From a virus (lineage: Duplodnaviria; Heunggongvirae; Uroviricota; Caudoviricetes), in IMG/VR virus record IMGVR_UViG_3300021400_002728, positions 37,154 through 101,153 of that record: a DNA stretch of 64,000 nt; one strand, written 5' to 3'. The position numbers were made by a program, and so were the translations under genes. Shown here one piece after another: positions 9,280 to 60,669 of the stretch. Each line of letters starts with the position of its first letter. Position 1 is the first letter of the stretch. The notes beneath the pieces were generated by a model that saw only the letters and a program-made list of their open reading frames with translations, was not told the DNA's origin and made no database searches.

Positions 9280-9309
9280 TCAAAGAATACTAGTTCTCTT
9301 CTTATATTA

Positions 9310-9322
9310 TTAAATAGCTCTT
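9310..9322 (-). promoter_or_regulatory. Conserved element 2 (minus-strand reading AAGAGCTATTTAAT) directly after the serpin stop codon
   Basis: One of 4 intergenic copies (9310, 14944, 27340, 60657), all within 0-6 nt after a stop codon; no sigma70 -10 at proper spacing. Confidence 0.3.
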
Positions 9323-13459: not shown

Positions 13460-13495
13460 ATTATATCAAAGATAACTATTTTTGTAAATAGTTAA
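13460..13495 (-). promoter_or_regulatory. Promoter P-f: ACTATTTACA -N17- TATAAT
   Basis: -35 overlaps stop codon of GGDEF gene; 17-bp spacer. Confidence 0.6.
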
Positions 13496-14547
13496 ATGAT
13501 TTTTACACCATTTCGTCCATGCTGTTTTACATAGTATAGCTGTTCATCTGCTATTTTAATAATATTATTGTAATCAGTAACTTCATCATACATACATCCA
13601 CCAATAGAAACTGTTACTTGATATGTAATAAGTTCAGCTTGTATAGCATCTTTTATTCTCATCGCAGTATCATATAAAATTTCTTTATTTACATTATTAA
13701 GTACTACTACAAATTCCTCTCCACCAAATCGAATAAGATAATCCTCTGATCTAATTGTATTATTTACAGTATAAGCTAATTTTTGTAGTATAACATCACC
13801 TACATCGTGTCCATAAGTATCATTTATCTTTTTAAAAAAATCTATATCTAATAATAAAATACCGGCATTATCAATAGTAAAAATATTTGTACCATTATGA
13901 CAAATAGTCTTGAATATATTTCTATTATATGCACCAGTTAATGGATCATGTAATAATACATGATTTAATTTAATATTTGAAATAAATTTATCTTCAAATA
14001 CTTTTTCTAGATACTGAATTAAAATTTCTGATCCAATAATAAGAAATATATGTAAGGCAATAATAGTTAAGAAATCATCATAATGAATAAATATATTAGC
14101 AATTATAATATCAACTATCATAAGTGAATGAAATATTGCAGAATAACGTTTTGGAGACGCTAATCCTAAGAATATAAAAATACATTCTATAACCATTAAG
14201 CCTTCATTAGCATGCATACGATTTTCTAAATGAAAAACTGCCCAAGACGTACAAAAAATAATTATGTGCGTCATAACATATGATGCTGAAATACAAAGCT
14301 TATAGTTATTTGATTTTCGCATAATAATTATGTATATAGCTAAGAATATAAAAATAGAAGCTCTAGCAAGTAGAGTTTCTAAAGCTATTCTACCATATAA
14401 CATACAATCAGTAAACCAATAAAAGAACGATGTAATACTAGCAGTTAGAATAATATAAAATACCATCTTCTCATAGTATTCATATTTAGATTGATAAAAC
14501 TCATCTTTACGTTCTTTTATGATACTATTAGTTATGTTTGGATTCAT
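13492..14547 (-). CDS. Membrane-anchored diguanylate cyclase (multi-TM N-terminal domain + GGDEF)
   Basis: Six-seven hydrophobic helices then DPLTGAYNRNIF...GHDVGDVILQ...RFGGEEFVVVL (GGEEF active site). Confidence 0.85.
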   Translation of the reverse strand: MNPNITNSIIKERKDEFYQSKYEYYEKMVFYIILTASITSFFYWFTDCMLYGRIALETLLARASIFIFLAIYIIIMRKSNNYKLCISASYVMTHIIIFCTSWAVFHLENRMHANEGLMVIECIFIFLGLASPKRYSAIFHSLMIVDIIIANIFIHYDDFLTIIALHIFLIIGSEILIQYLEKVFEDKFISNIKLNHVLLHDPLTGAYNRNIFKTICHNGTNIFTIDNAGILLLDIDFFKKINDTYGHDVGDVILQKLAYTVNNTIRSEDYLIRFGGEEFVVVLNNVNKEILYDTAMRIKDAIQAELITYQVTVSIGGCMYDEVTDYNNIIKIADEQLYYVKQHGRNGVKII

Positions 14548-14874: not shown

Positions 14875-14943
14875 CTTTATACTCTCCTTTATATTGTATA
14901 TTTATCAAAACTTAGTATTTTTCACATTCATACTATGTTATAA

Positions 14944-14956
14944 TTAAATAGCTCTT
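14944..14956 (-). promoter_or_regulatory. Conserved element 2 (AAGAGCTATTTAAT) overlapping the stop codon of the GT-C-like gene
   Basis: See element-2 family. Confidence 0.3.
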
Positions 14957-16359
14957 TAGTTATGTTGGTAAACTGTATACATATTATCATCAAAGATTAG
15001 TGTCCAGTCATCTGTATTTCTATTCATAGTTCTATTAACATAATGATTTTTCTTAGCTACTACATACTCATAGTCATCAACTAAGGCTAAAATCTCATCA
15101 TCTTCAACTAATGAATACCCACCATCTGATTCAGCCCAATATCCTTGTGATAACGCGAAATAGTCTTCTAGAATATGTGGTACACCACTAATCTCTTCAG
15201 AAAAGGCTTCACATCGACTATCTATTTTGATCTTTGTACATCCATTATACTCTAACCAACCACCTAAATCCATGGCTACATTATATATAGGAGCATCCTT
15301 GTCTTCAATAGAATTAGCAACCTTACCATAGTCATATTTAATATCTGTATGATGTACAAATAAAAAACATACTGCTATACATATTAACGAGATACATCCA
15401 TACATATAAGTATTATTGAGTTTATGAAATTCATCTACACAGCAGATTAAAAATACTACTGGAATAAACATAATACTAATATGTCTAAAATTTATTAAGG
15501 CTAATATTGCAATAATGAACACATAGTAATTAACAAAATAATTAGACTTATGTTTATAGATATAGTAAATAGTAAAACCAATTATTAAGGTTAACTTAAC
15601 ACCAGCGTAATCTTTTATTGATATTGGCAAAAGCTCATTTATACTAATTACATTAAATGCATTTGACATAAATGTTCGTACAATATATAATGATCCATCT
15701 ATACCATAAGGTGTTAATAAACTACATGTCATAAATAATGGTGTAAAACATATTAATGTCCAATCTATAAATGGTTTTTCTTTTTTATAAAAATATGGAA
15801 CCATTATTAGACCATGATATAAAAATACTGCCTGATGCATATTAGCTGATAAAATCAATATGGGAAAAATAGGAAGTAAATATTTAATAGACTTCTTTTC
15901 CTTATATAATTCTAGGAATATTAAATGAGCTAATAAACAAATAACAGTTATAATCTGTGGCCTAATATTGATCATATAATCACTACATATCAATATAGCT
16001 GCAATAGATCCAATAAATGCCTTCTTTTTATCATGTGTCTTTATCATGATAAACGCGACAGATACAAAATATAACACTATATTCTGAACTAATACAAATA
16101 GAATATGTCCAGTTGTTCCAAATCTATCTATAATGGCTAAACAAACTGCATATAGCCACTGTTGAACCGTTATTGGAAAGTTATTTAAGTGACTAGCAGT
16201 ATGAAAATTTCCATTAAGTATATCTCTACCACTCATAATCTCAAAAAACATATCATTATCTTGAGATTTACGTAATAAAATAATGTATAAAATGAGCATA
16301 AATAGACACATCAATACAATAGGAAAGTATTTATTTATTTTGTTACATACATTTTTCAT
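14956..16359 (-). CDS. Polytopic membrane protein (about 11-12 TM helices + C-terminal soluble domain), GT-C fold glycosyltransferase-like (GtrC/YfhO/PMT-like)
   Basis: Hydrophobicity pattern only; adjacency to GT2 GtrB-like gene; no specific motif verified. Confidence 0.45.
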   Translation of the reverse strand: MKNVCNKINKYFPIVLMCLFMLILYIILLRKSQDNDMFFEIMSGRDILNGNFHTASHLNNFPITVQQWLYAVCLAIIDRFGTTGHILFVLVQNIVLYFVSVAFIMIKTHDKKKAFIGSIAAILICSDYMINIRPQIITVICLLAHLIFLELYKEKKSIKYLLPIFPILILSANMHQAVFLYHGLIMVPYFYKKEKPFIDWTLICFTPLFMTCSLLTPYGIDGSLYIVRTFMSNAFNVISINELLPISIKDYAGVKLTLIIGFTIYYIYKHKSNYFVNYYVFIIAILALINFRHISIMFIPVVFLICCVDEFHKLNNTYMYGCISLICIAVCFLFVHHTDIKYDYGKVANSIEDKDAPIYNVAMDLGGWLEYNGCTKIKIDSRCEAFSEEISGVPHILEDYFALSQGYWAESDGGYSLVEDDEILALVDDYEYVVAKKNHYVNRTMNRNTDDWTLIFDDNMYTVYQHN

Positions 16360-16363
16360 TTAC

Positions 16364-17509
16364 TCAATCCTTTTTAACTTTAATTTCTAGAATGCCTAAG
16401 AAAAAGCTACTAAACATAAGTTGTATTCCACATACCAGTAATACAAGCATTGGAATAGTTAATCTTAGCATTTTTGAAGCATCTAAGTTACCAAAATTTG
16501 TATTTGACCATATTACCAATGCAACAATAGATCCAATTAACCCAACTACAAATAGAATTGCTCCTACTAAAATTCCTCTATTCATAGTTAGTTTAACTAG
16601 AAAATTATCAATCCTACACATTGGTATAAATTTAGATATTGCTGCATATCGTTTAGTTATTACATAGAATAGTATTAACTGAAAACCAATGATTGTTGAT
16701 ACTGCTCCATATACCAATGTATTGACGTCAAATTTAATATTACGAACAATAATAGGATCTAAAATAATCTTAGTACTTAGTATAATTCCAGCTATATGAA
16801 ATAACAATCCTGGATATAAGAATAACCAATTTGGGGCATGCATAAGCAAGAACGTCAAATGTCTCCAACCATCATACCAACTTCTTAGGTGTGGTGGACG
16901 GTCACGACCATCTTTTTTGAGAGTAGTAGGAACTTCACATATTTTAAGATTATGCAAAGTTGCTTGAACTACCATCTCACTGGCATATTCCATACCAGTA
17001 GTATGAAGATTAAGATCTAATATACTCTGTCTATTATATCCACGAAGACCACAATGAAAGTCTTTAATAGGACTTTTATATAGAATTCGACCAATAGTAG
17101 ATAATACTGGATTTCCTAAGTATCTGTGAAGTAGTGGCATGGCACCTTTTTCTATACCACCTTTGAATCGATTGCCCATAACCAATTCATATCCTTCACG
17201 AAGTTTTTCTACAAAAGGCATTAAGTTATTGAAATCATAAGAGTCATCAGAATCTCCCATAATGACATATTTACCTAATGCAGCATGACTGCCGCCAATT
17301 AAGGCAGCACCATAACCTTTTTCTTCAATGTTTACTACTCTTGCTCCTGCATTTCTAGCAATGTCTTGAGAACCATCTATACTGCCATTATCTGCAATAA
17401 GAACTTCACCATCAATTTGATTTTCTTTGAGAAATGTCTGTGCTTTACTGATACAAGTTTCTAATGTTCGTGACTCATTTAAGCAAGGCATTAGAATAGT
17501 TAATTCCAT
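16364..17509 (-). CDS. Family-2 glycosyltransferase with C-terminal TM helices (GtrB/CsbB/ArnC-like polyprenyl-phosphate sugar transferase)
   Basis: ILMPCLNES...LIADNGSIDGS...MGDSDDSYD (DxD) GT-A fold motifs; C-terminal hydrophobic helices. Confidence 0.8.
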   Translation of the reverse strand: MELTILMPCLNESRTLETCISKAQTFLKENQIDGEVLIADNGSIDGSQDIARNAGARVVNIEEKGYGAALIGGSHAALGKYVIMGDSDDSYDFNNLMPFVEKLREGYELVMGNRFKGGIEKGAMPLLHRYLGNPVLSTIGRILYKSPIKDFHCGLRGYNRQSILDLNLHTTGMEYASEMVVQATLHNLKICEVPTTLKKDGRDRPPHLRSWYDGWRHLTFLLMHAPNWLFLYPGLLFHIAGIILSTKIILDPIIVRNIKFDVNTLVYGAVSTIIGFQLILFYVITKRYAAISKFIPMCRIDNFLVKLTMNRGILVGAILFVVGLIGSIVALVIWSNTNFGNLDASKMLRLTIPMLVLLVCGIQLMFSSFFLGILEIKVKKD

Positions 17510-18127
17510 TTAATCAATTCCCTTCTTTTTTAATAGAGCTACAAAATGAAGATTTGAATCAAAGAAGATATGACATAAAAATGTGTATAAGTCTAACTTA
17601 TCTGCATAGTAAACAATTTCAAGATTATTATCCTCGAACATTTTATTCCATTGTTCTTCTGTAAGATAATTGTAAGGTAAGCTCACATTGTATTGTCTGT
17701 TACCTACATAATCCATCATTTTTAACTTTATTAATGACCACCATCCATGAAGAATGTGATCTTTTATTATAATGTATTCATCAGTTACTCTAACAACCTC
17801 AGAAAATAGCTTTTCTGGATCATCTGCATGATGTAATACATCTATCATCATAGTTGTGTTTACTTCATTTGTATGATATGGAATTGTACGACCGTCATAT
17901 TCAAGTACTGGAATAAATGTCTTATCTCTAACTAAAACATCTATTCCAGTAATTTGAATGTTATTCTTTTTAATTAGAATACTATCAATTTTGCCATCAC
18001 CTGCGCCAATATCAACTATATTGTTAATATTAAACATATCTATAATAGTAGTTATCCACATACTAAGCTGAGACATTCGACGATCATATATAAACCAATC
18101 ATGAAATTTGCTTAATAATGTTTTCAA
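17510..18127 (-). CDS. Class I SAM-dependent methyltransferase
   Basis: Motif I VDIGAGDGK; Rossmann-like alternation. Confidence 0.55.
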   Translation of the reverse strand: MKTLLSKFHDWFIYDRRMSQLSMWITTIIDMFNINNIVDIGAGDGKIDSILIKKNNIQITGIDVLVRDKTFIPVLEYDGRTIPYHTNEVNTTMMIDVLHHADDPEKLFSEVVRVTDEYIIIKDHILHGWWSLIKLKMMDYVGNRQYNVSLPYNYLTEEQWNKMFEDNNLEIVYYADKLDLYTFLCHIFFDSNLHFVALLKKKGID

Positions 18128-18515
18128 TTATTCCACTCCATTTGTTCATGTATAAATATATCATACATGCTAATTCAATAGAGACCATTAAACAGATATT
18201 ATCCTTCTTGCTGATTAAAAGTTGTATGAATATTGGAAGTATACACACAATACCTATAGAAGACCTCAGGATGACTAAGGAGATACCTAGAGCGACTATA
18301 TAAATAATGTCTATAGGCTGATTTTTATATTTCAACAAGAGTAATCCTAGAGTTCCAAAAAGTAGTACTGGATGTACTAACATACAAAAGCTAATATAGT
18401 TTACAAGAATTAATATGAATGGTATTTCATTCTTTTTATAGTCATAAATTATAACAGCGATTGCAGTTAGTACAAATATTATACTACAAACAAGATTCGT
18501 CATGTTCACCGACAT
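18099..18515 (-). CDS. Small 4-TM membrane protein, possibly GtrA-like flippase
   Basis: Size and 4 predicted TM helices; position at head of glycosylation cassette; start likely internal (MTNLV). Confidence 0.4.
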   Translation of the reverse strand: MSVNMTNLVCSIIFVLTAIAVIIYDYKKNEIPFILILVNYISFCMLVHPVLLFGTLGLLLLKYKNQPIDIIYIVALGISLVILRSSIGIVCILPIFIQLLISKKDNICLMVSIELACMIYLYMNKWSGIIENIIKQIS

Positions 18516-19554
18516 ATACCTTTAGAGGAATTTTGCTCATCCAAATAGTATTGTCATTCATAAGTGCTCTATACTTCTTAGCATCGTCTGAAGTGAAATA
18601 ACCTTCATCAGTGTATTCATATTCACGATTACGATTATCTCTCATAAAACTCTTATAAAAACGATCAATTTGTTCTGCGAGTTTTTCCTCGTTTTCTTTT
18701 GAATAATCAAGTTGCAAATACTTCTTAGAAGCCGAATTTCCAGGACAAATGAGATAACCTTTATTGATAGTAGTATTAAGCTCATTTTCCATAGCCCACT
18801 TATACAAAATCATTGATCCAAGGTAACCATCAAATGTTACAGCTTCTTCAGTAGGATGACCTGTCTTATAGTCAAGAATGATAACATCATCTCCTCTATA
18901 ATCTACACGGTCAGCAACATATGATACTGCACAAGGAACGGTATAACCAATAGATTTAGCATAAAGATTTTCAGCTCTTCCTCTATGCTCAGTTACACAC
19001 TTAAGAGTTTTCTCATCAAGTTCTGATCTTGGATGAAGATAATCCTTAATGTCATAATAACCAGTAATATATTCATCAAGTTTAGTTTTGTCCATATCAG
19101 GATTTGATTCTAATACAGTCTTTTCAAGTTCCCAGAGTTTATCTCTATTTCTCTCTTCACCGGGAAGAAGATAATAATCTTCAAGAACTTTATGAAATGC
19201 TGTACCAATTGCAGTAGCATCATTTGCGCCTTCTTCAAAGAAATTCTGCATAAGACTAAGTGCAGGATTGCTTCTATAACCTTTCATAAATGAAGGTGAA
19301 AAATAATCTCCACTATATCGATTCAACAAGGACTGCAGGTTAGACCCGTAGCCCTTGTAAATAGCGAGATTGCGTGTTTTATGTTTATTATTATATGCCT
19401 TGATTATTTTTGCAACGGCTTCCTCAACATCTGCAAAAAGTGCTTTAGCATCCATAGTGCTATTATCAATCTTGGCAATGTAAGTGACTAAATAGTCCTT
19501 ACCATTTTCAGTAATGATTTCCATGTCAATCTCCTTAATACCTATCGAAAGCAA
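18484..19554 (-). CDS. PD-(D/E)XK nuclease, Cas4/RecB-like exonuclease family
   Basis: VIILDYKTGHPTEE (D-Y-K-T-G motif typical of RecB-family nuclease core). Confidence 0.55.
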   Translation of the reverse strand: MLSIGIKEIDMEIITENGKDYLVTYIAKIDNSTMDAKALFADVEEAVAKIIKAYNNKHKTRNLAIYKGYGSNLQSLLNRYSGDYFSPSFMKGYRSNPALSLMQNFFEEGANDATAIGTAFHKVLEDYYLLPGEERNRDKLWELEKTVLESNPDMDKTKLDEYITGYYDIKDYLHPRSELDEKTLKCVTEHRGRAENLYAKSIGYTVPCAVSYVADRVDYRGDDVIILDYKTGHPTEEAVTFDGYLGSMILYKWAMENELNTTINKGYLICPGNSASKKYLQLDYSKENEEKLAEQIDRFYKSFMRDNRNREYEYTDEGYFTSDDAKKYRALMNDNTIWMSKIPLKVYVGEHDESCL

Positions 19555-20506
19555 TTCTAGTTTTCATACTATTTGCTTCGAATGAGTCTGCCAAAAGCAA
19601 CTTTGTGAATGTAGTAGTGCTAGGCTTATAGATAAATGCACCAAGTAAATCAGGCTGTCTAAGGAATGATGTCTGAAGTGCAGAGAACTGTCCATCTCTC
19701 CATCTAGAAAGAAGTGCAATTTCATAAAATCTAGATTCAACACCTACATTTCCAATATTATCAATAATTTCCTGTATTTTTTCCTTAGCTGTTAAAATAT
19801 CCTTAACATCAGGAATCTTCTGCTCAAGTGTAACATTAACCTTTTCTGCAGTACCCTTATTCATAGAGTCAAGTGATGCTTGAGTGGCGTGCTCAGTAAT
19901 CATAAGTGTTGAATAAATACCAATATTCTTAGGTGTAAATTCAGTATCGTATGATCTTCTGTACATACCCGCACACTTCTTACAGAAATGTCTAATACCA
20001 TGATTACATGAGAGGAATGTTCTTACGTGGATCTTTCCTCTCTTAGGAATATCCTTATAATCCTCAACGTATTTACCAAGTTCCATTACCCAGTGATTGC
20101 GAACCTTGTAATTGAAAGTATCTTCATCAATAGGTAACTTCATTTCAGTTCCTTCACTTCCACAATCATCAATCTCAATAGTCATATCATCACATGAACT
20201 AATGAGTTTCTTGTAGAAGTAACCTGATTCTGTAATATCAGTTATATTAGCTGCAATAACTGACTGCATGAATTTCTTTGATTCCTGTTCAGAATAGTTA
20301 TTGTTACGTCTTGCAACTGACTTCTTAATATCATCAGTATTCTTTGTAAAAGAAGTGATCTTTTCGATCTTATCCATTGCTTTCTGATCATTATCAATAA
20401 ACGCAGAAGCAAAGTCACTAACTGTAGGTACCACACAGTGTTCAAACATTGCTGAACCTAATTTGTGATACTTTTCAACGTACTCTTTTCTTGTTAATGT
20501 CTCCAT
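19535..20506 (-). CDS. Multisubunit RNA polymerase beta-prime, C-terminal fragment (bridge-helix region)
   Basis: STLMITEHATQASLDSMNKGTAEK aligns with beta-prime bridge helix [22 protein letters not shown]; immediately downstream of beta-prime N fragment. Confidence 0.6.
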   Translation of the reverse strand: METLTRKEYVEKYHKLGSAMFEHCVVPTVSDFASAFIDNDQKAMDKIEKITSFTKNTDDIKKSVARRNNNYSEQESKKFMQSVIAANITDITESGYFYKKLISSCDDMTIEIDDCGSEGTEMKLPIDEDTFNYKVRNHWVMELGKYVEDYKDIPKRGKIHVRTFLSCNHGIRHFCKKCAGMYRRSYDTEFTPKNIGIYSTLMITEHATQASLDSMNKGTAEKVNVTLEQKIPDVKDILTAKEKIQEIIDNIGNVGVESRFYEIALLSRWRDGQFSALQTSFLRQPDLLGAFIYKPSTTTFTKLLLADSFEANSMKTRIAFDRY

Positions 20507-20931
20507 TATTTCTTCTCCTCAAGAATAATATTTGTTCCATCGTCATACTGTAAAGTTAACGTTGTGTCTTCAATTAACATATTTACATGAGTTTCGGTCT
20601 TAACTCCAGTAGTAGTATCTTCATCAGTGAAGGTAGCACTAAAGTTATTCTCTATATCATCTTTAATTTCTTCATATGTTCCAGACTGAACAACTCGATC
20701 TTCACCAGCATCTACAGCAACATCAACTTTATTGTTACTGTAGATTTCAACTGCGACAGTAAACTGCCCATAGTCTTTGGTGTAGATTTTACTAGTTGGT
20801 TTGGTGAGAAGGATGATAGTGAGAACAATAAGACCTACAATCATAACACCAAAGAAAATTAATGAAGGTGTGTCAATACTACCATTCTTTTTCTTCTTAG
20901 GCTTTGGTTTAGTCTCTTTTTTCTCTTCCAT
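20506..20931 (-). CDS. Hypothetical single-pass membrane protein inside the RNAP operon
   Basis: Lys-rich N-terminus then TM helix LIFFGVMIVGLIVLTIILL; acidic C-terminal domain. Confidence 0.5.
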   Translation of the reverse strand: MEEKKETKPKPKKKKNGSIDTPSLIFFGVMIVGLIVLTIILLTKPTSKIYTKDYGQFTVAVEIYSNNKVDVAVDAGEDRVVQSGTYEEIKDDIENNFSATFTDEDTTTGVKTETHVNMLIEDTTLTLQYDDGTNIILEEKK

Positions 20932-20937
20932 TTTTTT

Positions 20938-22173
20938 TTACACCTCTTCACCAATCAATGTTGCAACATATTCGAATTCTTCGAGAATACCATTTCTGAT
21001 ACTAGAGTTAGAACCTTCGATGTAGTTATTACTTGCAAGAAGTTTCTTAGCTTCCTCACAGGCTTCTTTAGAGTAAAGAGCAATAACATTAAGTGAGTCA
21101 CCATCAACGTCGGCAGCAAGTCCATCATATACAATAGGGTTTGCCTGAATAACAAACTGCTCCTGTTCTAACTTAGAAAATACAGGTTTCATAGCGATAA
21201 TTGACTTAGCACCAATGGTAGGCTGACGGTTAAACAATACTAAGTAATCTTCATCAGCTAATTCCTGATTGATTCCATCAATATCAGTATACCCATTCTC
21301 ATCTGTATACTTAGCAAACAGACGAGGATAAAGTGTAGGAATGAAGTAATATCCAATCTTAAGAGTATCTTCGTCAAGACTAAAGTTATTAGTCATAACC
21401 GCACGGATCATTCCAGTTTCAGACTGACCCTTAAGTTCGGCATCAATAATATTACGCTTATTCTTTGCAAGGATCTGGAATAACTCATGATAGAGTTTAT
21501 CAAGCTCTCTACAAACAATGAAACGAAGATTGATCTCATTGAAGATAGTAAGCTTACTATTCTTCTGAAGAGATTCATATCTATTGTTCTGACGAAGCAT
21601 ATTGATGTAGATAGTATTCAGATTACCGATAAAATATTTATCACCCTGGAAAGTAATCTGTCTGAATGAAGTATGAGGAATACTGATATTTCTGTGTACA
21701 TTCTCATTGTACCAAGATTCAGAAACTCCGATACTCATCAATGCGTCCTTACCAATCAGAATCTTCTTCTCATCATACTTAGAGAAGTCTGCCTTAAGGT
21801 CGAATTCTACGTATTCACCTTCATAAAGGAAACCTCTACTATTGAGAAGATTATCGATCATGGTCTTATCATAAGCACCATAGTTGATAACTCTGTTAGG
21901 AAGGTCGAAGTTAAACTTTATATAGAAGTTTGGAATGTTTCTCTTGTTGAGAACTCTGCAGTTACACTTAGGACAAATTCCAGGTTTTGTCTGCTCACCG
22001 CAATAACATTTACCAAACTTACCAAAAATCTTTTCAGAGAAAATTCCATCTTCATGAAAGAGGTAACGATCACCATCCTTAATCTTTCTAGCCTGAAAAA
22101 GCTTTTCAGACGTTACCTGATTCATAGGATTCTCTGTAATATGTACTGGTCTAATCGTCGCTTTCATCGGCAT
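20938..22173 (-). CDS. Multisubunit RNA polymerase beta-prime, N-terminal fragment (zinc finger + catalytic NADFDGD-like loop)
   Basis: CYCGEQTKPGICPKCNCRV (cf. [23 protein letters not shown]); LFNRQPTIGAKSIIAMKP (cf. LNRAPTLHRLGIQAFEP); AADVDGDSLNV (cf. NADFDGDQMAV). Confidence 0.85.
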   Translation of the reverse strand: MPMKATIRPVHITENPMNQVTSEKLFQARKIKDGDRYLFHEDGIFSEKIFGKFGKCYCGEQTKPGICPKCNCRVLNKRNIPNFYIKFNFDLPNRVINYGAYDKTMIDNLLNSRGFLYEGEYVEFDLKADFSKYDEKKILIGKDALMSIGVSESWYNENVHRNISIPHTSFRQITFQGDKYFIGNLNTIYINMLRQNNRYESLQKNSKLTIFNEINLRFIVCRELDKLYHELFQILAKNKRNIIDAELKGQSETGMIRAVMTNNFSLDEDTLKIGYYFIPTLYPRLFAKYTDENGYTDIDGINQELADEDYLVLFNRQPTIGAKSIIAMKPVFSKLEQEQFVIQANPIVYDGLAADVDGDSLNVIALYSKEACEEAKKLLASNNYIEGSNSSIRNGILEEFEYVATLIGEEV

Positions 22174-24403
22174 TGTTGTTTTTCTCCTTTTTGATTATAC
22201 TATTGAAGTTTTCCTCATCAAACTGATCATATACTGCCTCATCGGTAGTATCAATATCATCGATCTCATCTTCAAGAGTGAGTACATATCCAATAGACTT
22301 AAGAATTTCAATGAACTGCATTGAAAGCTTAGGATTCTTAGGAAGAGTACGTGTCTCTTCAATATCAGATACAAGTTTGTGAGAACCTACATACTTGGTA
22401 ATGGATCTAATACCAAGTTCCTTAAGGATAGCAGGACAATCATTAGCTACAAGATTAAGTTTCTCCATCTCACCGAAACGAAGAGTTCTTGTATAACCAT
22501 GATCTGCAGATGAACAACTAATCTTAGTTGATGCGTGGTGATACAATCTCATAATATGATTGATACCAACAGGAATGACGTTCTTGATTCCCTTATACTC
22601 AACAATAGAGTTCTTAGAATAAGTAGCCATCTGTTTCTTATACTTCTCAATCATAATTGAGATGTAGTCTTTATCTTCAAAATCAATTCCTGACGCTCTT
22701 GCCCAAGCTTCGAAGATCTGACCCAATGAACCACGTCTCATAGTTGAGAAACCTGAAATGATAACTTCCAGAGGACCTGCTTCCATATTACCAACTTTCT
22801 TTGTAAGTCTAGGCATCTGATCATCAGGAAGAATAAGACCTACAGTACCTTTAGCACCATGAAGATTGGTAATCTTATCACCAAGTCTAAAAGGAATTTC
22901 CCAATTAATAAATACACGAACATTGTTTACGTCAACATCATCAATCTTAGAAATTCTGACGTTCTCATAACCAAGTAATATTGCGAAGTTCTTAGTAGGG
23001 AATACGATCTGAAGTGTATCAGTATCAATCTCATTAGTAGTATCATAGATTTCCTTAAGTGCGAGGAATGTCTTAGACTTCTTATTGAGATATAAGATAG
23101 TTGAATCGTATGTTCTAAGTCTCTTTGCAAAAGATTCAGAAATAACGATTGAGTCTGCAGAAGTATAACCTTCAAGATCAGTAAAACCAACTCTGGCCTC
23201 AATACGATGAGTAATATCGTCAATTTCATCTGCAAGAGGCACTGCCTGTGACGTCATTTTCGCGTTCATCATGATTCTCTTAGGCTTATCATTATTACAG
23301 AAAGGAGATTCAGACAAACATGAAAGACGTTTTGCCTGAGGCATATCAACGTACTCATACATGTTATGCATTTCACCTTTATCATCGATAACCCAAAGTA
23401 ATCCGTCCTTAACGACTACATTATCAAGCAACAGTCTCTGACGACCTGCAGCTTTAGATGTAACAGTCTTGAACGAATCAAAGAATCCGTTTGTATCTTT
23501 GTATGTGAATGCTGGCTGGAAAGATCCGCCGCTGTTATAGATGTTTGCGCAAGTTCTGAAGTTTTCGAGTGCGAAAATCTTACTTTCAGAACGAACAAGA
23601 CAGCCTTCAAGATGTTCGCCAAGATCATTGTATCTCTTACTCTTACTTACAATGATTGTGTTTACACCTAAGAGAATTCCCTTAGTAGGCTGTGCGTATT
23701 TTCCAGACTTAAGAACTGCATCTTCGAAGTATTCAAGTCTAGAAAACTTGTAATTAAAAATACTATCTGAGTCGAACATAGGAAGCTTACGAAGTGCCTT
23801 AACAAAGTTTTCCTGAGTTAAAGGCTCGCCTAAAGAGGTCTCAAGTAACATTCTTGATCTAGGCTTAAGATGATTCGTAAAGATTTCTTCGATGGTAGGT
23901 TCAAATTTGAACTCTTCTTTAGTAACTACACATTCGAATTTGTCTTTAGTAATATCATACTTCCAACCTTCACCTCTAACAGTTTCATAATCGACCTTAC
24001 CTACACAATTGTAATAGTCTTTAACTGCAGTAACACGAGTCACATAATGTGATCTGTTAATAATCCAGCAAAGATCAATGGAAGGCGTAGGCATTGCTCC
24101 GATAAGGAGTGTCTTACCGCTGTAATCTCCATAAATATCAATACACATATTATGGAAATTCAACTTCAGCTTATAACTATTAGGTGTCTGTTTGTCGGCT
24201 TCTGCATTAAGAAACCCTAAATTGAGATTTTGTGCCAGCTTACATGGCTCTTTGGTGTTCCAGAAGCGTTCGCAGTCTTTATCGATTCCAGCTTGAATCT
24301 TTGCGAAATCATCTTCCTCATTGATTGGACTCACACCAAGAAACTTTTGATTTGCCTGCGTCCAATATGCAAGCTCATTCTTGTACAATTCCTGGATAGT
24401 CAT
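22151..24403 (-). CDS. Multisubunit RNA polymerase beta subunit, compact (750 aa)
   Basis: WIINRSHYVTRV (cf. FVINGTERVIV); NNDKPKRIMMNAKMTSQAVPL (cf. HNDANRALMGANMQRQAVP); LHGAKGTV (GRHGNKGV); MRRGSLGQIFE (SRMNIGQILE); RFGEMEKLNLVA (RFGEMEVWALEA). Confidence 0.9.
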   Translation of the reverse strand: MTIQELYKNELAYWTQANQKFLGVSPINEEDDFAKIQAGIDKDCERFWNTKEPCKLAQNLNLGFLNAEADKQTPNSYKLKLNFHNMCIDIYGDYSGKTLLIGAMPTPSIDLCWIINRSHYVTRVTAVKDYYNCVGKVDYETVRGEGWKYDITKDKFECVVTKEEFKFEPTIEEIFTNHLKPRSRMLLETSLGEPLTQENFVKALRKLPMFDSDSIFNYKFSRLEYFEDAVLKSGKYAQPTKGILLGVNTIIVSKSKRYNDLGEHLEGCLVRSESKIFALENFRTCANIYNSGGSFQPAFTYKDTNGFFDSFKTVTSKAAGRQRLLLDNVVVKDGLLWVIDDKGEMHNMYEYVDMPQAKRLSCLSESPFCNNDKPKRIMMNAKMTSQAVPLADEIDDITHRIEARVGFTDLEGYTSADSIVISESFAKRLRTYDSTILYLNKKSKTFLALKEIYDTTNEIDTDTLQIVFPTKNFAILLGYENVRISKIDDVDVNNVRVFINWEIPFRLGDKITNLHGAKGTVGLILPDDQMPRLTKKVGNMEAGPLEVIISGFSTMRRGSLGQIFEAWARASGIDFEDKDYISIMIEKYKKQMATYSKNSIVEYKGIKNVIPVGINHIMRLYHHASTKISCSSADHGYTRTLRFGEMEKLNLVANDCPAILKELGIRSITKYVGSHKLVSDIEETRTLPKNPKLSMQFIEILKSIGYVLTLEDEIDDIDTTDEAVYDQFDEENFNSIIKKEKNNNADESDD

Positions 24404-24494
24404 TCGCTCTGTCCTTTCATATTTGATTTTGGAATGTATATTAAAATACGGATAGTGGTGTCTCTTATAATTATATCTTACGATTTAATTTGAA

Positions 24495-25046
24495 TTACTT
24501 CTGTTCTGTTGCAGCTGCACGATCAGCCTCGCACTGGCGAACAATCGCATTCACCATATGAGCGAGATATGCATTAACTGCATCATGAGTAAAGATCATA
24601 AGTGAGCGGAACTTATCGATCGTCATACTAACGCCGATCTTAAGATCAGGGGAACCATCAGGTGCAATAGCACCGGTTTCAGTAATCTTACCTTTTCCGC
24701 GAGACATATTGATGAAGATCTTGTCCCCAGATTTGCCCAATGACAGAATTCTAGATTCAGGCTTTCCGTCATAGTTTTTGGAATTTTTTGAGCCACCCAT
24801 AGAGACAGTCTTCTGGCCAGCATCCAACTCTTTAATAAGACGTCCACTAGCCGCGTCAGTTGCAAGCAGCGCAACTTCCTCAAAGTCGAGATAACAGTCA
24901 ATAGACGTCTTATCCGCATAATTTGCATTCTGGAATCTTACCTTTTCAATTCCGAATGCGTCATAATATACGTTTGTAACTACCTTGTTGGTACTAGCCT
25001 TGGTGATTTTAGATTTTTCAAAATTATCTTTTCTATTAATTGACAT
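24495..25046 (-). CDS. Hypothetical protein, noticeably GC-richer than surroundings (start moved to MSINRKDNF; AAGGAG-6nt-ATG)
   Basis: ORF track; local GC elevation; Lys/Gly-rich middle region. Confidence 0.5.
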   Translation of the reverse strand: MSINRKDNFEKSKITKASTNKVVTNVYYDAFGIEKVRFQNANYADKTSIDCYLDFEEVALLATDAASGRLIKELDAGQKTVSMGGSKNSKNYDGKPESRILSLGKSGDKIFINMSRGKGKITETGAIAPDGSPDLKIGVSMTIDKFRSLMIFTHDAVNAYLAHMVNAIVRQCEADRAAATEQK

Positions 25047-25085: not shown

Positions 25086-25121
25086 ATTATATACTGTTAC
25101 TATAAATTTGTAAATAGTTTT
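25086..25121 (-). promoter_or_regulatory. Promoter P-g: AAAACTATTTACA -N17- TATAAT
   Basis: Family member; only recognisable promoter upstream of the RNAP operon. Confidence 0.6.
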
Positions 25122-25146
25122 ATCACTATTTTATAAGAAAAAGATA

Positions 25147-25184
25147 AAATTTGCTAGGGTTATAAAAATAACTCTAGCAAATTT
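25147..25184 (-). terminator. 11-bp perfect inverted repeat AAATTTGCTAG...CTAGCAAATTT (16-nt loop) with T-runs on both strands; terminator immediately after 25187..26218
   Basis: Seen in sequence; stop codon abuts stem. Confidence 0.55.
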
Positions 25185-25186
25185 TT

Positions 25187-27254: not shown

Positions 27255-27339
27255 AGTACATCTCCTTATAACTTACAAATAAGAATGTAATTGATCTAAA
27301 CAATCAACTACATCCTTTTGCTTCTATAAACTTATAGAA

Positions 27340-27352
27340 TTAAATAGCTCTT
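27340..27352 (-). promoter_or_regulatory. Conserved element 2 (AAGAGCTATTTAAT) 6 nt after stop of 27359..28132
   Basis: See element-2 family. Confidence 0.3.
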
Positions 27353-27358
27353 CGCTAA

Positions 27359-28132
27359 TTATCTGGATGTAAGTTCATTGAGTTTAAGCTGAAGCTGACT
27401 AATCTGACTAAAGGCAGAATCCATAAGATTAAGCAAATTATTAAGCTGAGAATTAAGCTCATCAAATTCGTCTTTATCTACTAAAACCTTGATATGTGTA
27501 TGGCCTTCAGCGTCAGTCATAACTAATTGAGAATAATTACTACTCTGAGATCTTGCTACAACCGTATTAAGTGGTTTAGGCTCTTCAGAAACCTTAGTAG
27601 GTTTAACTGCCTTAGCTCTTTCAACCTTAGGTTTTGCAACTTTAGGTTTATCTGTAGTAGGTTTCTTTTCATACTCGTACTTAGCAAACTTAGACTTACC
27701 TATTCTAAGAACATCACACATCTTAGCATAAGCATCTTCATTCATTTTACCAGTTTTGACACAGGCACCCACATAATTATAAGTATATCCCATCTTTGTA
27801 CTAAGTGTCTCCATGGACATCCTGATCTCTTTCAGATATGCCCTAAATGGATTCACTCTAAACTTTACTGTAGTATTAGTATTAGCTACCTTTGTACCTG
27901 TATGATACATATTATGTTCATCATCTACAGTAAGAATGGTTTCATCTGTGCCTAACATATTACACATAGTCTTATATGCATCTGCAGCCATTTTACCATT
28001 CTGCATACTAGTAAATAAATAACTGTCTGAATATCCAAGCATTTTAGACATAGCACTCATACTATATCCATTAAGCTCTAGATATTCCTTGACCTTAGTA
28101 GTATCTATATTAACGTACGTATAGGTTTCCAC
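27359..28132 (-). CDS. Putative DNA-binding protein with two tandem HTH-like repeats and C-terminal coiled coil
   Basis: Internal duplication (..YLELNGYSMSAMSKMLGYSDSYL..GKMAADAYKTMCNMLG / ..ETLSTKMGYTYNYVGACVKTGKMNEDAYAKMCDVLR). Confidence 0.4.
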   Translation of the reverse strand: METYTYVNIDTTKVKEYLELNGYSMSAMSKMLGYSDSYLFTSMQNGKMAADAYKTMCNMLGTDETILTVDDEHNMYHTGTKVANTNTTVKFRVNPFRAYLKEIRMSMETLSTKMGYTYNYVGACVKTGKMNEDAYAKMCDVLRIGKSKFAKYEYEKKPTTDKPKVAKPKVERAKAVKPTKVSEEPKPLNTVVARSQSSNYSQLVMTDAEGHTHIKVLVDKDEFDELNSQLNNLLNLMDSAFSQISQLQLKLNELTSR

Positions 28133-28145
28133 TAAGTTTCCCTCC

Positions 28146-29162
28146 TTACTTTGTCACTCTGCTTACATACTCAAGAATATCAGTAGACATAGCTAAGCTA
28201 TCAATAAGTTTATTAAACTTCTCTTCATCTACAAGTATATAAGACTTATTGTTAATAGTTACTTTAACTAAATCTATTTTCTCAGGAACTACTTCCTGAA
28301 AAATTTCGTCGCTTTTTACCTGCTCAATAGTATTAAATGCTTTTTCAGTTCTTTCCTCAACTGTAGAATTATCCTGTGCAGCATTTGCAAGCTGTACAAT
28401 CATATTATATACATTATCATTTAATAGATGATTAGTAGCAAGCTGTGCAGAAATATAACTCTTACTCATATTACACATAACTGAAATTTCAGACTGTGAC
28501 TTACCAGTTTGCTTAATAAGATCTTTAATTTTTGCCTTATATGCTTCATCGGCCTTTTCAGAATGATATACTCTTTTAGCATTATTCATAAGCTTTTCCT
28601 CTATTTTTGCTATATCATTATTAAGTTCTTTTATAAGTTCATCATAGAAAATCTTGTCCATTCTACAAGTCTGCATACAAGTATAGATATAACCAGCAGA
28701 TTTATTATGATTAATACAAAATTTAACTCTATTAATATTTGAATTTTTAAGTAATGTCTTAAGTTCATCTTTATTAAACTCAACAATACTACCGTCATTA
28801 ACCTTTGATCTAGTCTTTCTAACAGTTGTTTTATTCATATTTTTTACCTCTATATTATCCATAGGAGATGTTACTTTAGCATTAGCTGATAACTGATGTT
28901 CAACTTTAGTAGCTCTATTATCATCTTTTGCAAATACATATTTATCATCAGATGAAAATGTAGGATAGCCTATATTAAAAAAATCACATAACAACATATA
29001 ATAAGTCTTAGGCATAGTCTTCTTATCAAAACATTCGTCTAAGAAATTCTTATCTCTAAATAATGCTTTTTCACTAACAAACTCATGTGACAATCCAGCA
29101 GCTGCAATAACATTCTTGATAATTATAACATCAAGATTAACTAGGTACTCATTCTCAATCAT
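28146..29162 (-). CDS. Putative DNA-binding protein, paralog-like of 27359..28132 (start moved to MIENEY; GAGGAAA SD)
   Basis: HTH-like segment KQTGKSQSEISVMCNMSKSYISAQL; same architecture. Confidence 0.4.
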   Translation of the reverse strand: MIENEYLVNLDVIIIKNVIAAAGLSHEFVSEKALFRDKNFLDECFDKKTMPKTYYMLLCDFFNIGYPTFSSDDKYVFAKDDNRATKVEHQLSANAKVTSPMDNIEVKNMNKTTVRKTRSKVNDGSIVEFNKDELKTLLKNSNINRVKFCINHNKSAGYIYTCMQTCRMDKIFYDELIKELNNDIAKIEEKLMNNAKRVYHSEKADEAYKAKIKDLIKQTGKSQSEISVMCNMSKSYISAQLATNHLLNDNVYNMIVQLANAAQDNSTVEERTEKAFNTIEQVKSDEIFQEVVPEKIDLVKVTINNKSYILVDEEKFNKLIDSLAMSTDILEYVSRVTK

Positions 29163-29215
29163 TATTGTTTCCTCATAAAAATAAACTACATTACAAATAG
29201 GCAAAGACCAAGCCC

Positions 29216-31417
29216 TTAGGACTTAGTCTCTGCATAGAACATATTTCTAAGAGATACGATATCTCTAGGAATTAAATCTCTCTGCTCCTGATCATATGAG
29301 TTGTAAAGCCTCTGGCAGAAAGCATAGAAGTTATTTGAAAGCTGATTGGTAAGGAATCCAGTTCTGTTAAGCTTACCATACTTAAGAGTTGCCTGAGCAA
29401 CATGTCTCATGCACTTCCAGAAGTTGTAGTAAGCAAGCTTAACCTTAACCATATAACCTGCAGCATCTTCAATTACGAAACCCTCAATGATTCTACCATC
29501 AAATTCATAACCTTCAGCAGTTACTTCATTGTACCAGTCAAAGAACTCTGAGTAAGAATTGATAGTGTATGCCTTAGTCTTAGTCTTAATACCAAGCTCT
29601 CTACCAATGTTAACTACCTGATCATATTCATACTGAGCAAACTTAATATCATTCTTAATGATAGCAAGTAAGAAGAGCTCTGATTCAGGATATTCAATGA
29701 TGTGAGGATCACGCTTCATATCTACATTCTCGAATACGAAAGTTACCTTATCATTCTTTGCAATTTCCTTCATCTTTGCAATAGCTTCAGGAGTCATCTT
29801 AGCATCGATTGCTTCTCTTAACCATACTGAGAATTCACCTTCAGGATTTGACTTAGTAGTTACAAAGAGATCATCAGTTTCTTCATCATATGATACCAGA
29901 CCAAGATAACCATTTTCCTTGACATAACAGGTAACAGGGAAAGTAAGAGTATACTGGAGCATCTCTAACTTAGTCTCAGGTCTCTCATTGATATTGAAGA
30001 ACTTATTAAATCCTCTAGCAACTACATTCATAGTTCTAGTGTTAACATAAAGTCCTCTAGCAACTACAGTCTGGTTATTCCAGATCTTATCAAGGAAAGC
30101 ATCCTTAGTAAAGTTGAAAGATGAGATGTTACCAAACTTCTTCTCCATAATGAATCTGTTCTTTCTCATTGCTTCTACAGTGTCAATAACTGAAAGATCA
30201 AGAGACTGAGATTTTGCTTCAACTGCTTCAGGTTCAGCAAATACTGTGTTCTCAATTTCAACAATGTTGAAACCATTCTTATCGAGTTCTACAACTCTAA
30301 GATTACCACCATATTCAACCTTACCTTCAAGATCAAATACTCTATCTCTTAACTGAGTAGGATCAGTTTTAGTATTTCTGTGACCAAAGATCTGGTACTG
30401 ATTCTCATCAGTAGTAGCCATCCAAGTATCAGCTACCTGCTCATAGTCATTGTACTTACCTACACCATTAATCATCTGACAAGTAGCCATGAAAGTAAGA
30501 TTCTCAGGCATAGTAGCTACACCACCATGAGTAACAAGAATTTCTTTGTCACCATAAGTGTACCAAGCACACTGACCCATCTTTCTGTAAAGCTGACGAA
30601 TCTTTGAAGGATCGATGGCTGCTGCAACAAGCTGGTCCTTAGTCTTAAGTTCAAACTCTTCATTTCTGCTAATACCACCATTTGCATAGATCCAGAAAGA
30701 CTTGTCGTGATTACCTTCAAGAATAAGTACGTTCTTCTTCTGGCAGATATCAATCATGAAGTTCATAACTTCTGCATTTTCGATACCACGATCAAGAAGG
30801 TCTCCTAAGAAGATGTACATATAGTTGTCATTGAGTCCGTCCTTAAGATAAGTCTTAAGAGCAGTGTAACAACCATGAATATCACCAATGTGAATGATCT
30901 TCTCATAGTTAGACATATCGAATCTCTTGATGAACATCTCTTCAAAATGCTCAGGATCGATAACCTTGATACCAGAAGGAATCTTCTGATTCTCAAATCT
31001 TGCATACATCTTATCAATTACTTCTTCAGGAACTCTCTTATATTCATCACGAGAAGCATTGCGTCTCTTACACTCCTCGATAGGAAGCTTAGTAAAGTCA
31101 ATGATGAACATTCTGTAACGATACTGATCACACATCTCCTTATATTTGTTCATCTCTTCAGTCTTAGAATTAGTTGCATCGATTACAGTGAATTCACCAT
31201 GAGACATACGAATGTCAAGCAGCTTGAAGAGCATCTGCCATACATTCTTCTCGTTATTCTGTGAAATTTCAGTAGTACCATAAATATTCTGCTGTGCTGA
31301 CTGACACTGAAGTCTAATCTCATCAGCAGACAAAGCAAAAGGTCTAAGTCCATGCTTATCAATGAACGTAGACTTTCCACAACCAGGTGCTCCTCTGAAA
31401 AGTAAAAGTGATCTCAT
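29216..31417 (-). CDS. Polynucleotide kinase-phosphatase with C-terminal ligase-like domain (bacterial Pnkp-type RNA repair enzyme)
   Basis: P-loop LLFRGAPGCGKST (5' kinase); calcineurin-like phosphoesterase motifs IHIGDIHGCY, LGDLLDRG, GNHD; C-terminal nucleotidyltransferase-like CYVKENGYLG (K-x-N-G motif I). Confidence 0.75.
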   Translation of the reverse strand: MRSLLLFRGAPGCGKSTFIDKHGLRPFALSADEIRLQCQSAQQNIYGTTEISQNNEKNVWQMLFKLLDIRMSHGEFTVIDATNSKTEEMNKYKEMCDQYRYRMFIIDFTKLPIEECKRRNASRDEYKRVPEEVIDKMYARFENQKIPSGIKVIDPEHFEEMFIKRFDMSNYEKIIHIGDIHGCYTALKTYLKDGLNDNYMYIFLGDLLDRGIENAEVMNFMIDICQKKNVLILEGNHDKSFWIYANGGISRNEEFELKTKDQLVAAAIDPSKIRQLYRKMGQCAWYTYGDKEILVTHGGVATMPENLTFMATCQMINGVGKYNDYEQVADTWMATTDENQYQIFGHRNTKTDPTQLRDRVFDLEGKVEYGGNLRVVELDKNGFNIVEIENTVFAEPEAVEAKSQSLDLSVIDTVEAMRKNRFIMEKKFGNISSFNFTKDAFLDKIWNNQTVVARGLYVNTRTMNVVARGFNKFFNINERPETKLEMLQYTLTFPVTCYVKENGYLGLVSYDEETDDLFVTTKSNPEGEFSVWLREAIDAKMTPEAIAKMKEIAKNDKVTFVFENVDMKRDPHIIEYPESELFLLAIIKNDIKFAQYEYDQVVNIGRELGIKTKTKAYTINSYSEFFDWYNEVTAEGYEFDGRIIEGFVIEDAAGYMVKVKLAYYNFWKCMRHVAQATLKYGKLNRTGFLTNQLSNNFYAFCQRLYNSYDQEQRDLIPRDIVSLRNMFYAETKS

Positions 31418-33423: not shown

Positions 33424-33472
33424 CACTGTCTCCTTTACATATAAATACACTCATAATTGAGCATCTATCTAT

Positions 33473-60616: not shown

Positions 60617-60656
60617 TTTCGTACCTCTTTTCTTAAAGATTTGAACATCTGTATAA

Positions 60657-60669
60657 TTAAATAGCTCTT
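60657..60669 (-). promoter_or_regulatory. Conserved element 2 (AAGAGCTATTTAAT) 2 nt after stop of 60672..60944, about 45 nt upstream of ATG at 60616
   Basis: See element-2 family. Confidence 0.3.

Follow-up and report, generated by a model that had tools for sequence, protein, structure and literature searches.

Does the minus-strand gene string at positions 18484 to 25046 of a 64-kb stretch of phage DNA encode a working multisubunit RNA polymerase (RNAP), and, if so, which kind of enzyme is it? The stretch, hereafter the window, comprises 64,000 nucleotides of the virus record IMGVR_UViG_3300021400_002728 (positions 37,154 to 101,153), and a first-pass annotation made from its letters had proposed a compact RNAP with a single beta subunit and a beta' subunit in two pieces. 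We conclude, with a probability of about 0.7, that the locus encodes a functional, strongly reduced RNAP with two double-psi beta-barrels (DPBBs), belonging to a huge uncultured phage and most likely taking over its middle and late transcription. The genes concerned are the following.

24495–25046, minus strand: up183, a 183-amino-acid (aa) Whirly/PC4-like protein (fold predicted), first gene of the operon
22151–24403, minus strand: beta, 750 aa, unsplit, compact RNAP beta subunit
20938–22173, minus strand: beta'N, 411 aa, N-terminal half of beta'
20506–20931, minus strand: TM141, a 141-aa bitopic membrane protein between the beta' halves
19535–20506, minus strand: beta'C, 323 aa, C-terminal half of beta'
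18484–19554, minus strand: PD-(D/E)XK nuclease, 356 aa from a TTG start, or 346 aa from the ATG at 19524 used in public gene calls

The five open reading frames (ORFs) from beta to the nuclease were recovered intact, on the minus strand and at exactly the coordinates of the first-pass annotation, both in the ORF list and in gene calls. Their junctions are tight: beta and beta'N overlap by 23 nt, TM141 and beta'C by 1 nt, and the others overlap or abut. Throughout the window, whose GC content is 30–37%, all substantial ORFs lie on the minus strand.

In translation, beta carried RIMMNAKMTSQAVPL, NLHGAKG, RRGSLGQIFE and RFGEME as well as fork/NMQRQAVP-like, GYxxED-like and GEME motifs, while its flap and N-terminal lobes were reduced; every motif quoted earlier from beta, beta'N and beta'C could be read in the translations. 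Pfam Rpb2_6 matched beta at 35.5 bits (cut-off 23.4), and both beta and beta'N matched PHROGs families named "RNA polymerase beta subunit". Family profiles were built from homolog alignments (A1, A2 and A3 for beta, beta'N and beta'C, respectively). When run against PDB sequences, the beta profile retrieved bacterial beta at 3e-16, the beta-C piece of the AR9 non-virion RNAP (nvRNAP) at 1e-12 and phiKZ at 1e-5, its best matches being Firmicutes and Thermus enzymes such as 6WVJ and 8I23. Using hhalign to map residues in E. coli numbering, we aligned the DPBB of beta (GDK510...HGAK518G) to E. coli positions 1063–1074, where K510 and K518 correspond to K1065 and K1073; both lysines were invariant across 39 beta sequences. 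The N-terminal third of beta had no sequence-level match, either in the PDB profile search or by hhalign to E. coli RpoB. The AlphaFold2 (AF2) model of beta showed a confident fold, and comparison of beta with known subunits gave the following scores and alignment lengths.

Plastid-encoded polymerase (PEP) beta: score 20.0, 442 residues
AR9 nvRNAP beta-C: score 19.8, 296 residues
Pol I A135: score 19.4, 508 residues
Vaccinia Rpo132: score 18.9, 521 residues
Pol IV/V subunit 2: score 18.6, 540 residues
Xanthomonas beta: score 18.5, 520 residues
phiKZ beta-C: score 18.0, 281 residues

The alignments were about 230 residues longer to full-length subunits than to the split phage C-pieces, which argues that the N-terminal third of beta corresponds to the N-terminal lobes. 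As modelled, beta is a complete, unsplit, shrunken subunit with the second-largest-subunit fold, N-terminal lobes included. The proposal of a single 750-aa beta chain thus held, one ORF encoding it here and full-length homologs measuring 679–832 aa across the family. At the C-terminus (window 22151–22280), we observed a low-confidence, highly acidic tail of about 40 residues (EDEIDDIDTTDEAVYDQFDEE...ADESDD).

The two beta' pieces were identified in the same manner. The translation of beta'N contained CYCGEQTKPGICPKC, FNRQPTIG and AADVDGD, and that of beta'C contained SGYFYKKLISSCDD. Pfam Rpb1_2 was found in beta'N at 38.8 bits (cut-off 25.3), the beta'N profile matched bacterial beta' and cyanobacterial gamma in the PDB at about 2e-14, and hhalign placed the protein on E. 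coli RpoC 53–496 with a probability of 98.6%. For beta'C, the only Pfam match, to Rpb1_5 (E = 5e-4, 19.9 bits), fell under the cut-off of 28.5; its profile matched beta' 787–979 in the PDB at E = 2.8e-6, hhalign aligned its residues 90–271 to E. coli RpoC 789–988, and in a jackhmmer search over IMG/VR loci it was linked, at 1e-25 to 1e-38, with the C-terminal regions of beta' proteins from other phages. Pfam, PDB profiles and hhalign all placed the pieces in the RpoB and RpoC superfamilies, as the first-pass annotation had supposed. The beta'N chain ends about 50 aa after the DPBB and its residue D359, and beta'C begins about 90 aa before the bridge helix. A beta' split directly after the DPBB, at this same site, is known from phiKZ/AR9-type and cyanobacterial enzymes (PMC7598289). 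ORFs and homology together confirm the earlier division of beta' into 411 and 323 aa around the 141-aa membrane-protein gene.

To follow the split through the relatives, whose loci are numbered with an L, we examined gene contexts from public gene calls and from our own ORF calling with phmmer and jackhmmer. The order beta then beta'N was universal in the family loci examined. In the close subclade and in L004 and L015, the beta'C gene lay next to this pair or followed a gene for a small membrane protein; it was found 2–6 kb downstream in L022, L025 and L028, and beyond the ±10-kb flanks in a human-associated clade of about 200 kb. A second scan located it in that clade on the same contigs, 34–36 kb away (for example in IMGVR_UViG_3300006564_000173), and in one case about 50 kb from beta, if the contig is circular. 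The opposite arrangement occurs in P0212, a 1,091-aa representative protein in which beta and beta'N are fused, with both Pfam domains and the motif SGDHDGD. The split of beta' is therefore real and old, and it is functional, since the halves have been retained whether adjacent, 2–6 kb apart or 34–50 kb apart on the same contigs, and since the fusion exists; beta, beta'N and beta'C are inherited together. In the next-nearest family, P0256 (1,215 aa), Rpb2_6 and Rpb1_2 likewise occur in one chain. Two further observations concern the human-associated clade, as represented by L006: a TnpB/IS605-family ORF (L006 8125–9273) lies directly upstream of the up183-beta-beta'N block, and a DnaG-type primase gene directly follows beta'N.

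How large and how discrete is the family? Homologs of beta formed about 140 clusters (90% identity) at E ≤ 1e-3 in a collection of 5.8 billion proteins; they were 39–92% identical, nearly all 700–830 aa long, and came from contigs of up to 532, 504, 426 and 395 kb in rumen, gut and human samples. The few members with a source name were called "hypothetical protein". A hidden Markov model (HMM) scan of 1.84 billion representatives returned 47 proteins at E ≤ 1e-30, about 25 of them full length (679–802 aa). Beyond the family the score falls sharply to E = 4e-28, where large RNAPs match only the DPBB region, indicating that the beta family is discrete. IMG/VR members lie on viral contigs of 190–467 kb. 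Searched at the DNA level, the 50,697 deposited phage genomes of INPHARED gave no match, and tblastn to deposited phages gave only short weak matches to jumbo phages, covering 10–28% of beta, with no close cultured relative. By its sequences, the family forms a clearly separate RNAP lineage. Among the other phage RNAP lineages that we observed in IMG/VR (L046–L067 and L040–L042), most keep NADFDGD; one consists of single ORFs of about 2,060–2,300 aa with beta and beta' fused, and in another a beta of about 1,363 aa is accompanied by an adjacent, unsplit beta' of only about 780 aa.

The catalytic centre was preserved. The first-pass annotation had described the aspartate triad as deviant, which proved mistaken: D355, D357 and D359 of beta'N correspond to D460, D462 and D464 and are intact and invariant, and only the flanking N and F of the motif differ. 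R316, the counterpart of R425, was likewise invariant; R425 reads the ribose 2'-OH. The zinc ribbon of beta'N (C56/C58/C67/C70) matches C70/C72/C85/C88, and a second zinc site in beta'C (C115/C167/C175/C178) matches C814/C888/C895/C898. The bridge helix is present in beta'C as SGYFYKKLISS, followed by the trigger loop STLMITEHATQASLDSMNKG, of which 20 residues were identical in ten sequences whose overall identity was 43–92%. We also observed that the ribbon of beta'N (CxC...CxxC) is deleted in L006, L016 and L019 of the human-associated clade (alignment A2, columns 76–97), indicating that this element is dispensable within the family. The three chains together amount to 1,484 aa, about 62% of the 2,392 aa of B. 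subtilis beta (1,193) and beta' (1,199); the E. coli total is 2,749 aa.

Which of the known polymerases does this enzyme resemble? Phage-encoded cell-type RNAPs are already known from the phiKZ group, the AR9 group and the metagenomic mReC clade (PMC7598289, PMC7481178), and the reviews of 2020, 2021 and 2026 that we consulted describe only phiKZ/AR9-type and YonO-type phage enzymes. Like the nvRNAPs of phiKZ and AR9 (PDB 7OGP, 7S00), the present proteins are phage homologs of beta and beta', smaller than the cellular subunits, with beta' split right after the DPBB and no recognisable alpha, omega or sigma. Unlike in those enzymes, where beta is in two pieces, beta here is a single chain. We found no homolog of gp68 or gp226 in the window; the up183 profile had no PDB match at E ≤ 10, although 7OGP, 7S00 and related entries were included. 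The likeness to phiKZ and AR9 drawn at first sight thus stands for the beta' split site and fails for sequence, which is no closer to them than to bacterial RNAP (3e-16 for the latter versus 1e-12 and 1e-5). Three features that define the phiKZ/AR9 type are missing here: the division of beta, a subunit of the gp68/gp226 type and the closest kinship in sequence. Moreover, phiKZ is independent of host RNAP, whereas the operon described here has a host sigma-A-type promoter.

Bacterial RNAP gave the best sequence matches (beta 3e-16, beta'N 2e-14), and the conserved catalytic elements map onto the E. coli enzyme; by contrast, the flap and N-terminal lobes are reduced here, the clamp and jaw are largely missing, beta' is split and N458, R933 and H936 are replaced. 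The split beta' of cyanobacteria and plastids (rpoC1/gamma and rpoC2) differs in that the cyanobacterial halves are much larger, are adjacent and work with alpha, omega and sigma. The multimeric-RNAP-encoding Caudovirales (mReC) are likewise uncultured tailed phages with beta and beta' found by metagenome mining; their enzymes, chosen because they could be aligned to COG0085 and COG0086, retain NADFDG (Weinheimer & Aylward 2020, PMC7481178). In comparable IMG/VR loci, beta is about 1,290–1,360 aa and the unsplit beta' 780–1,000 aa, with NADFDGD, and the present family forms a score cluster separate from them. YonO and gp66 of the crAss-like phage phi14:2 are similarly minimalist, with two DPBB domains, in their case within a single chain. 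We did not find the compact family described in the literature on jumbo-phage RNAPs, huge phages, Lak and Jug phages and the rumen, which we covered in part.

To see how the operon is transcribed, we analyzed its flanks. The features that bear on this question are as follows.

25146–25185, after the upstream leucine-rich-repeat (LRR) gene: long hairpin with an 18-bp stem, from a terminator scan and sequence reading
25086–25120, minus strand: sigma-70/sigma-A-type promoter, AAAACTATTTACA-N17-TATAAT, 11/12 consensus, then the ribosome-binding site (RBS) AAGGAG
61048, 58962, 46763, 45241, 42091, 40470, 35754, 31481, 25117, 13491, 13179 and 6400, minus strand: examples of copies of the promoter motif
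14956–18515, minus strand: downstream gene string of a 138-aa protein with several transmembrane (TM) segments, a methyltransferase, a GT2 protein and a 467-aa polytopic protein

Upstream of up183, at the site that scored best in the scan, TTTACA and TATAAT (25114–25086) are separated by 17 nt and followed by the AAGGAG site and the up183 start codon. The hairpin is terminator-like and marks the start of a new transcription unit. The motif AAAACTATTTACA-N17-(TG)nTATAAT has about 17 copies in minus-strand intergenic gaps between 940 and 61050, and 16 occurrences of its core CTATTTACA were counted in the window, where 1.4 would be expected. The same motif stands upstream of up183 in L001, L003, L008, L010 and L011, and distant relatives have other sigma-A-like promoters there, including a perfect TTGACA-17-TATAAT with a TG-extended −10 element in L012 and L028. 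A sigma-A-type promoter before up183 suggests that the phage RNAP operon is expressed early, by host RNAP. Between this promoter and position 14956, the only terminator-like site on the coding strand is a weak one (18264–18280) inside the 138-aa gene; TM141, the nuclease and the glycosylation-type genes therefore probably belong to the same transcription unit as the polymerase genes.

Two side observations were made on the promoter sequences. Conserved bases upstream of the −35 element in the window copies could represent a phage-specific activator site or an UP-like element. A second motif, AAGAGCTATTTAAT(W)nTAtAA, occurs four times on the minus strand (60654–60667, 27337–27350, 14941–14954 and 9307–9320), each time right after a stop codon. 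Its CTATTTA core also occurs in the promoters, and the motif may represent either a second class of promoter or a processing site. As a candidate promoter for the phage RNAP it was missing from most relatives, and chance matches dominated among those listed from an IMG/VR scan, which allowed no conclusion.

The operon is set in a replication and early-gene module with topoisomerase II, DnaB, DnaC-like and DnaD-like loaders, UvsX, Dda and RNA ligase; the window also encodes a separate DnaG-type primase. An identical copy of the up183 protein was present on a 394-kb contig, and the phage genome is at least 394 kb. A low-GC rumen or gut bacterium of the Bacillota is the probable host, judging from the sigma-A-type promoters, the strong Shine-Dalgarno sites, one homolog source binned as a "Bacilli bacterium" metagenome-assembled genome (MAG) and sample names pointing to rumen or gut data sets.

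The first gene of the operon, up183, deserves separate consideration. Its homologs formed 91 clusters, and in about 20 distinct loci the gene lay 9–174 nt upstream of beta or overlapped it; around this conserved pair the flanking genes varied by locus, with DnaB, the primase, beta'C and everything upstream rearranged. In L022 and L025 it was 1.7 kb upstream of beta. At E < 0.2, neither L004, the most divergent clade, nor the neighbourhoods of RNAP genes from other phage lineages yielded an up183 homolog. The protein had no match in Pfam or PHROGs and matched only uncharacterised phage proteins in BFVD. Its AF2 model, with a predicted local distance difference test (pLDDT) score of 92.9, consists of two beta4-alpha repeats forming one domain, which in the model is a Whirly/PC4-like type I fold. 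Named members of that fold type include plant p24/PBF-2, StWhy2 and trypanosome MRP1/2; up183 has no detectable sequence similarity to them and, unlike them, is phage-encoded and lies in an operon with an RNAP. Plant Whirly proteins (p24/PBF-2) are transcription regulators and are found on plastid transcriptionally active chromosomes. From its operon position and its persistent adjacency to beta, up183 may be an RNAP accessory or initiation factor. As type I PC4-like folds are single-stranded nucleic-acid binders (PMC7549692), the model predicts that up183 binds single-stranded nucleic acid.

The same fold feeds the strongest competing explanation, in which up183 is the phage's replicative or recombination single-stranded DNA (ssDNA)-binding protein (SSB) and its adjacency to beta is historical, not functional. 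We give this proposal a little short of even odds. Whirly/PC4 folds do bind ssDNA (PMC7549692), no canonical SSB was recognised among the roughly 65 window ORFs scanned, the gene sits within the replication module, and it was not detected in L004. Set against this, up183 stays directly upstream of beta in about 20 loci while other genes rearrange, and the RNAP operon opens with it, downstream of the common promoter.

Returning to the RNAP itself, we infer a programme in which beta, beta'N and beta'C would assemble into a core enzyme without alpha or omega. Host RNAP would make this enzyme early in infection from the sigma-A-type promoter, and the phage RNAP would then transcribe middle and late phage genes, with up183 perhaps acting in initiation. 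The whole would be a T7-like programme run with a cell-type enzyme, by analogy with the non-virion RNAPs of phiKZ and AR9.

Several observations weigh against this reading. There are no structural or late genes within the 64-kb window, and the phage identity comes from the IMG/VR classification and PHROG matches, the window being without virion genes. The window ORFs, compared with PHROGs, yielded no sigma-, gp68- or gp226-like factor. A second RNAP set was also sought: iterated beta, beta'N and beta'C profiles run against all six-frame window ORFs matched only the known genes, a search confined to the 64-kb window, the full genome being 394 kb or more. Residues 272–323 of beta'C, its last 52, remained unaligned to E. 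coli beta' by hhalign and HMMER, a likeness to region H being seen by eye only, and the C-terminal-most region of beta' may be absent or encoded elsewhere. Finally, in bacterial RNAP N458, R933 and H936 contact the incoming nucleoside triphosphate (NTP), and all three are replaced family-wide. The window sequence has A in place of N458, a position taken by A, S, G or Q in 30/30 family sequences, whereas NADFDGD was retained in 29/37 motif occurrences of other phage RNAP lineages in the same scan; in the trigger loop, R933 has become D213 and H936 has become N216. To judge from these replacements, substrate choice or catalysis could differ from that of a standard transcriptase. A bolder version, in which up183 takes the place of sigma, gp68 or gp226 in a self-sufficient minimal RNAP, for example by recognising or stabilising a melted template strand, and the altered NTP residues reflect an unusual mechanism, seems to us unlikely.

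Could the enzyme instead be packaged in the virion, like the phiKZ virion RNAP (vRNAP), and injected to transcribe early genes independently of the host? Phages of the phiKZ/AR9 type do carry such an enzyme (PMC7598289). We disfavour this alternative and give it a slim chance. The early/replication region and the RNAP operon are full of canonical sigma-A-type promoters, which points to host RNAP for early transcription, and the genes themselves are part of the replication module rather than of a structural-gene region. Furthermore, a single set was seen in the window, and each IMG/VR contig showed one locus for beta and one for beta'C with family-specific patterns, which are blind to divergent paralogs.

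Slimmer still is the chance that the enzyme is no general transcriptase but a polymerase linked to replication or recombination, which would synthesise primers or have relaxed sugar selectivity and would work on ssDNA together with up183 and the nuclease. The family-wide loss of N458, R933 and H936 would suit it, as would the presence of a protein with an ssDNA-binding fold and a RecB-family nuclease in the same gene string and the position of the primase gene directly after beta'N in the L006 clade. The two-barrel class also includes DNA polymerases, for example archaeal PolD (PMC7824862). By contrast, the bridge helix, trigger loop, zinc ribbon, fork and R425-equivalent are all retained, the last being invariant as R316, and the window has its own DnaG-type primase, DnaB and helicase loaders. 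The link to the nuclease is loose as well: its gene lies 0–9 kb downstream of beta in most relatives, at a variable position, and stays even where beta'C has moved. As for the idea that the genes are functionless, decaying relics of captured bacterial rpoBC, suggested by their small size, the split beta' and the weak Pfam coverage (only 80-aa stretches match), it is refuted by conservation and its probability is practically nil, since ORFs intact in more than 100 divergent homologs, consistent lengths, a confident AF2 fold for beta, invariant catalytic residues, a 20-residue trigger loop 100% conserved at 43–92% identity and halves kept even 34–50 kb apart exclude pseudogene decay and speak for strong purifying selection.

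TM141 consists of a Lys-rich N-terminus, a single TM helix and an ectodomain rich in beta structure, and no family in Pfam or PHROGs matched it above threshold. It occurs only in the closer subclade (L001, L003, L008, L010, L011, L013, L014 and L024), where it is 31–81% identical while beta'C is 64–92% identical. We therefore rejected it as an RNAP subunit, being clade-restricted and fast-evolving; it is most likely an inserted accessory gene. The nuclease matched Pfam PDDEXK_1 (PF12705) at 43.7 bits (cut-off 22) and the exonuclease family phrog_69, and its D205, D218-Y-K220 and Y241 were invariant in the alignment. Only C176 was invariant among the cysteines of 9 orthologs. Of the earlier label "Cas4/RecB-like", the RecB-family PD-(D/E)XK part stands, and the Cas4 part was rejected, the protein being without the four-cysteine Fe-S cluster of Cas4/AddB. 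With its loose connection to the RNAP, this nuclease fits the replication/recombination module better than the polymerase. Downstream, in ORFs that overlap or abut, come the 138-aa multi-TM protein, a 205-aa S-adenosylmethionine (SAM) methyltransferase, a 381-aa GT2 glycosyltransferase whose C-terminus is a TM segment, and the 467-aa polytopic protein; with their Pfam matches, they look like a cell-envelope glycosylation cassette. That the operon runs on into such a cassette, as the first-pass annotation had it, agrees with the GT2, methyltransferase and multi-pass proteins and with the lack of a recognisable terminator before them.

Elsewhere in the window, we observed further genes outside the polymerase operon. 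Just upstream of the LRR gene and the RNAP operon, two proteins (27359–28132 and 28146–29204) consist of repeated weak helix-turn-helix (HTH)-like segments and are candidate transcription regulators of the phage. A 733-aa protein that joins a kinase, a metallophosphatase and a T4-type RNA ligase (29216–31417; phrog_8238, E = 7e-211) looks like an RNA-repair enzyme of the Pnkp/Rnl-like kind. Nicotinate phosphoribosyltransferase, nicotinamide adenine dinucleotide (NAD) synthase and a nicotinamide mononucleotide (NMN)-adenylyltransferase-like protein form an NAD salvage/synthesis set (43118–44335, 33524–34249 and 34254–35174) that may serve NAD rebuilding during infection. Odd cargo for a phage, at 9324–10712, 40795–42030, 13492–14547 and 31559–33450, includes a serpin (Pfam E = 1e-65), a protein with a YkuD L,D-transpeptidase domain, a diguanylate cyclase of the GGDEF type and a pair of Band_7/stomatin-like proteins. 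An Rfam scan and a tRNA scan of the window found no RNA elements.

New features of this locus are its extreme compaction, a 750-aa beta that is not split, the replacement of NTP-contact residues, a partner with a Whirly fold as predicted from its model, and the fission/fusion series. The universal elements of beta and beta' are squeezed into about 1,480 residues in three chains, with the likeness to region H seen by eye only, and the split, dispersed and fused arrangements amount to subunit fission and fusion inside one family. The compact RNAP would be an attractive minimal system for finding out which components a multisubunit RNAP cannot do without, and a compact structural target. Its altered NTP-contact residues and predicted Whirly-fold partner bear on substrate selection and on sigma-independent initiation, in an RNAP family that is widespread in the huge phages of rumen, gut and human-associated samples.

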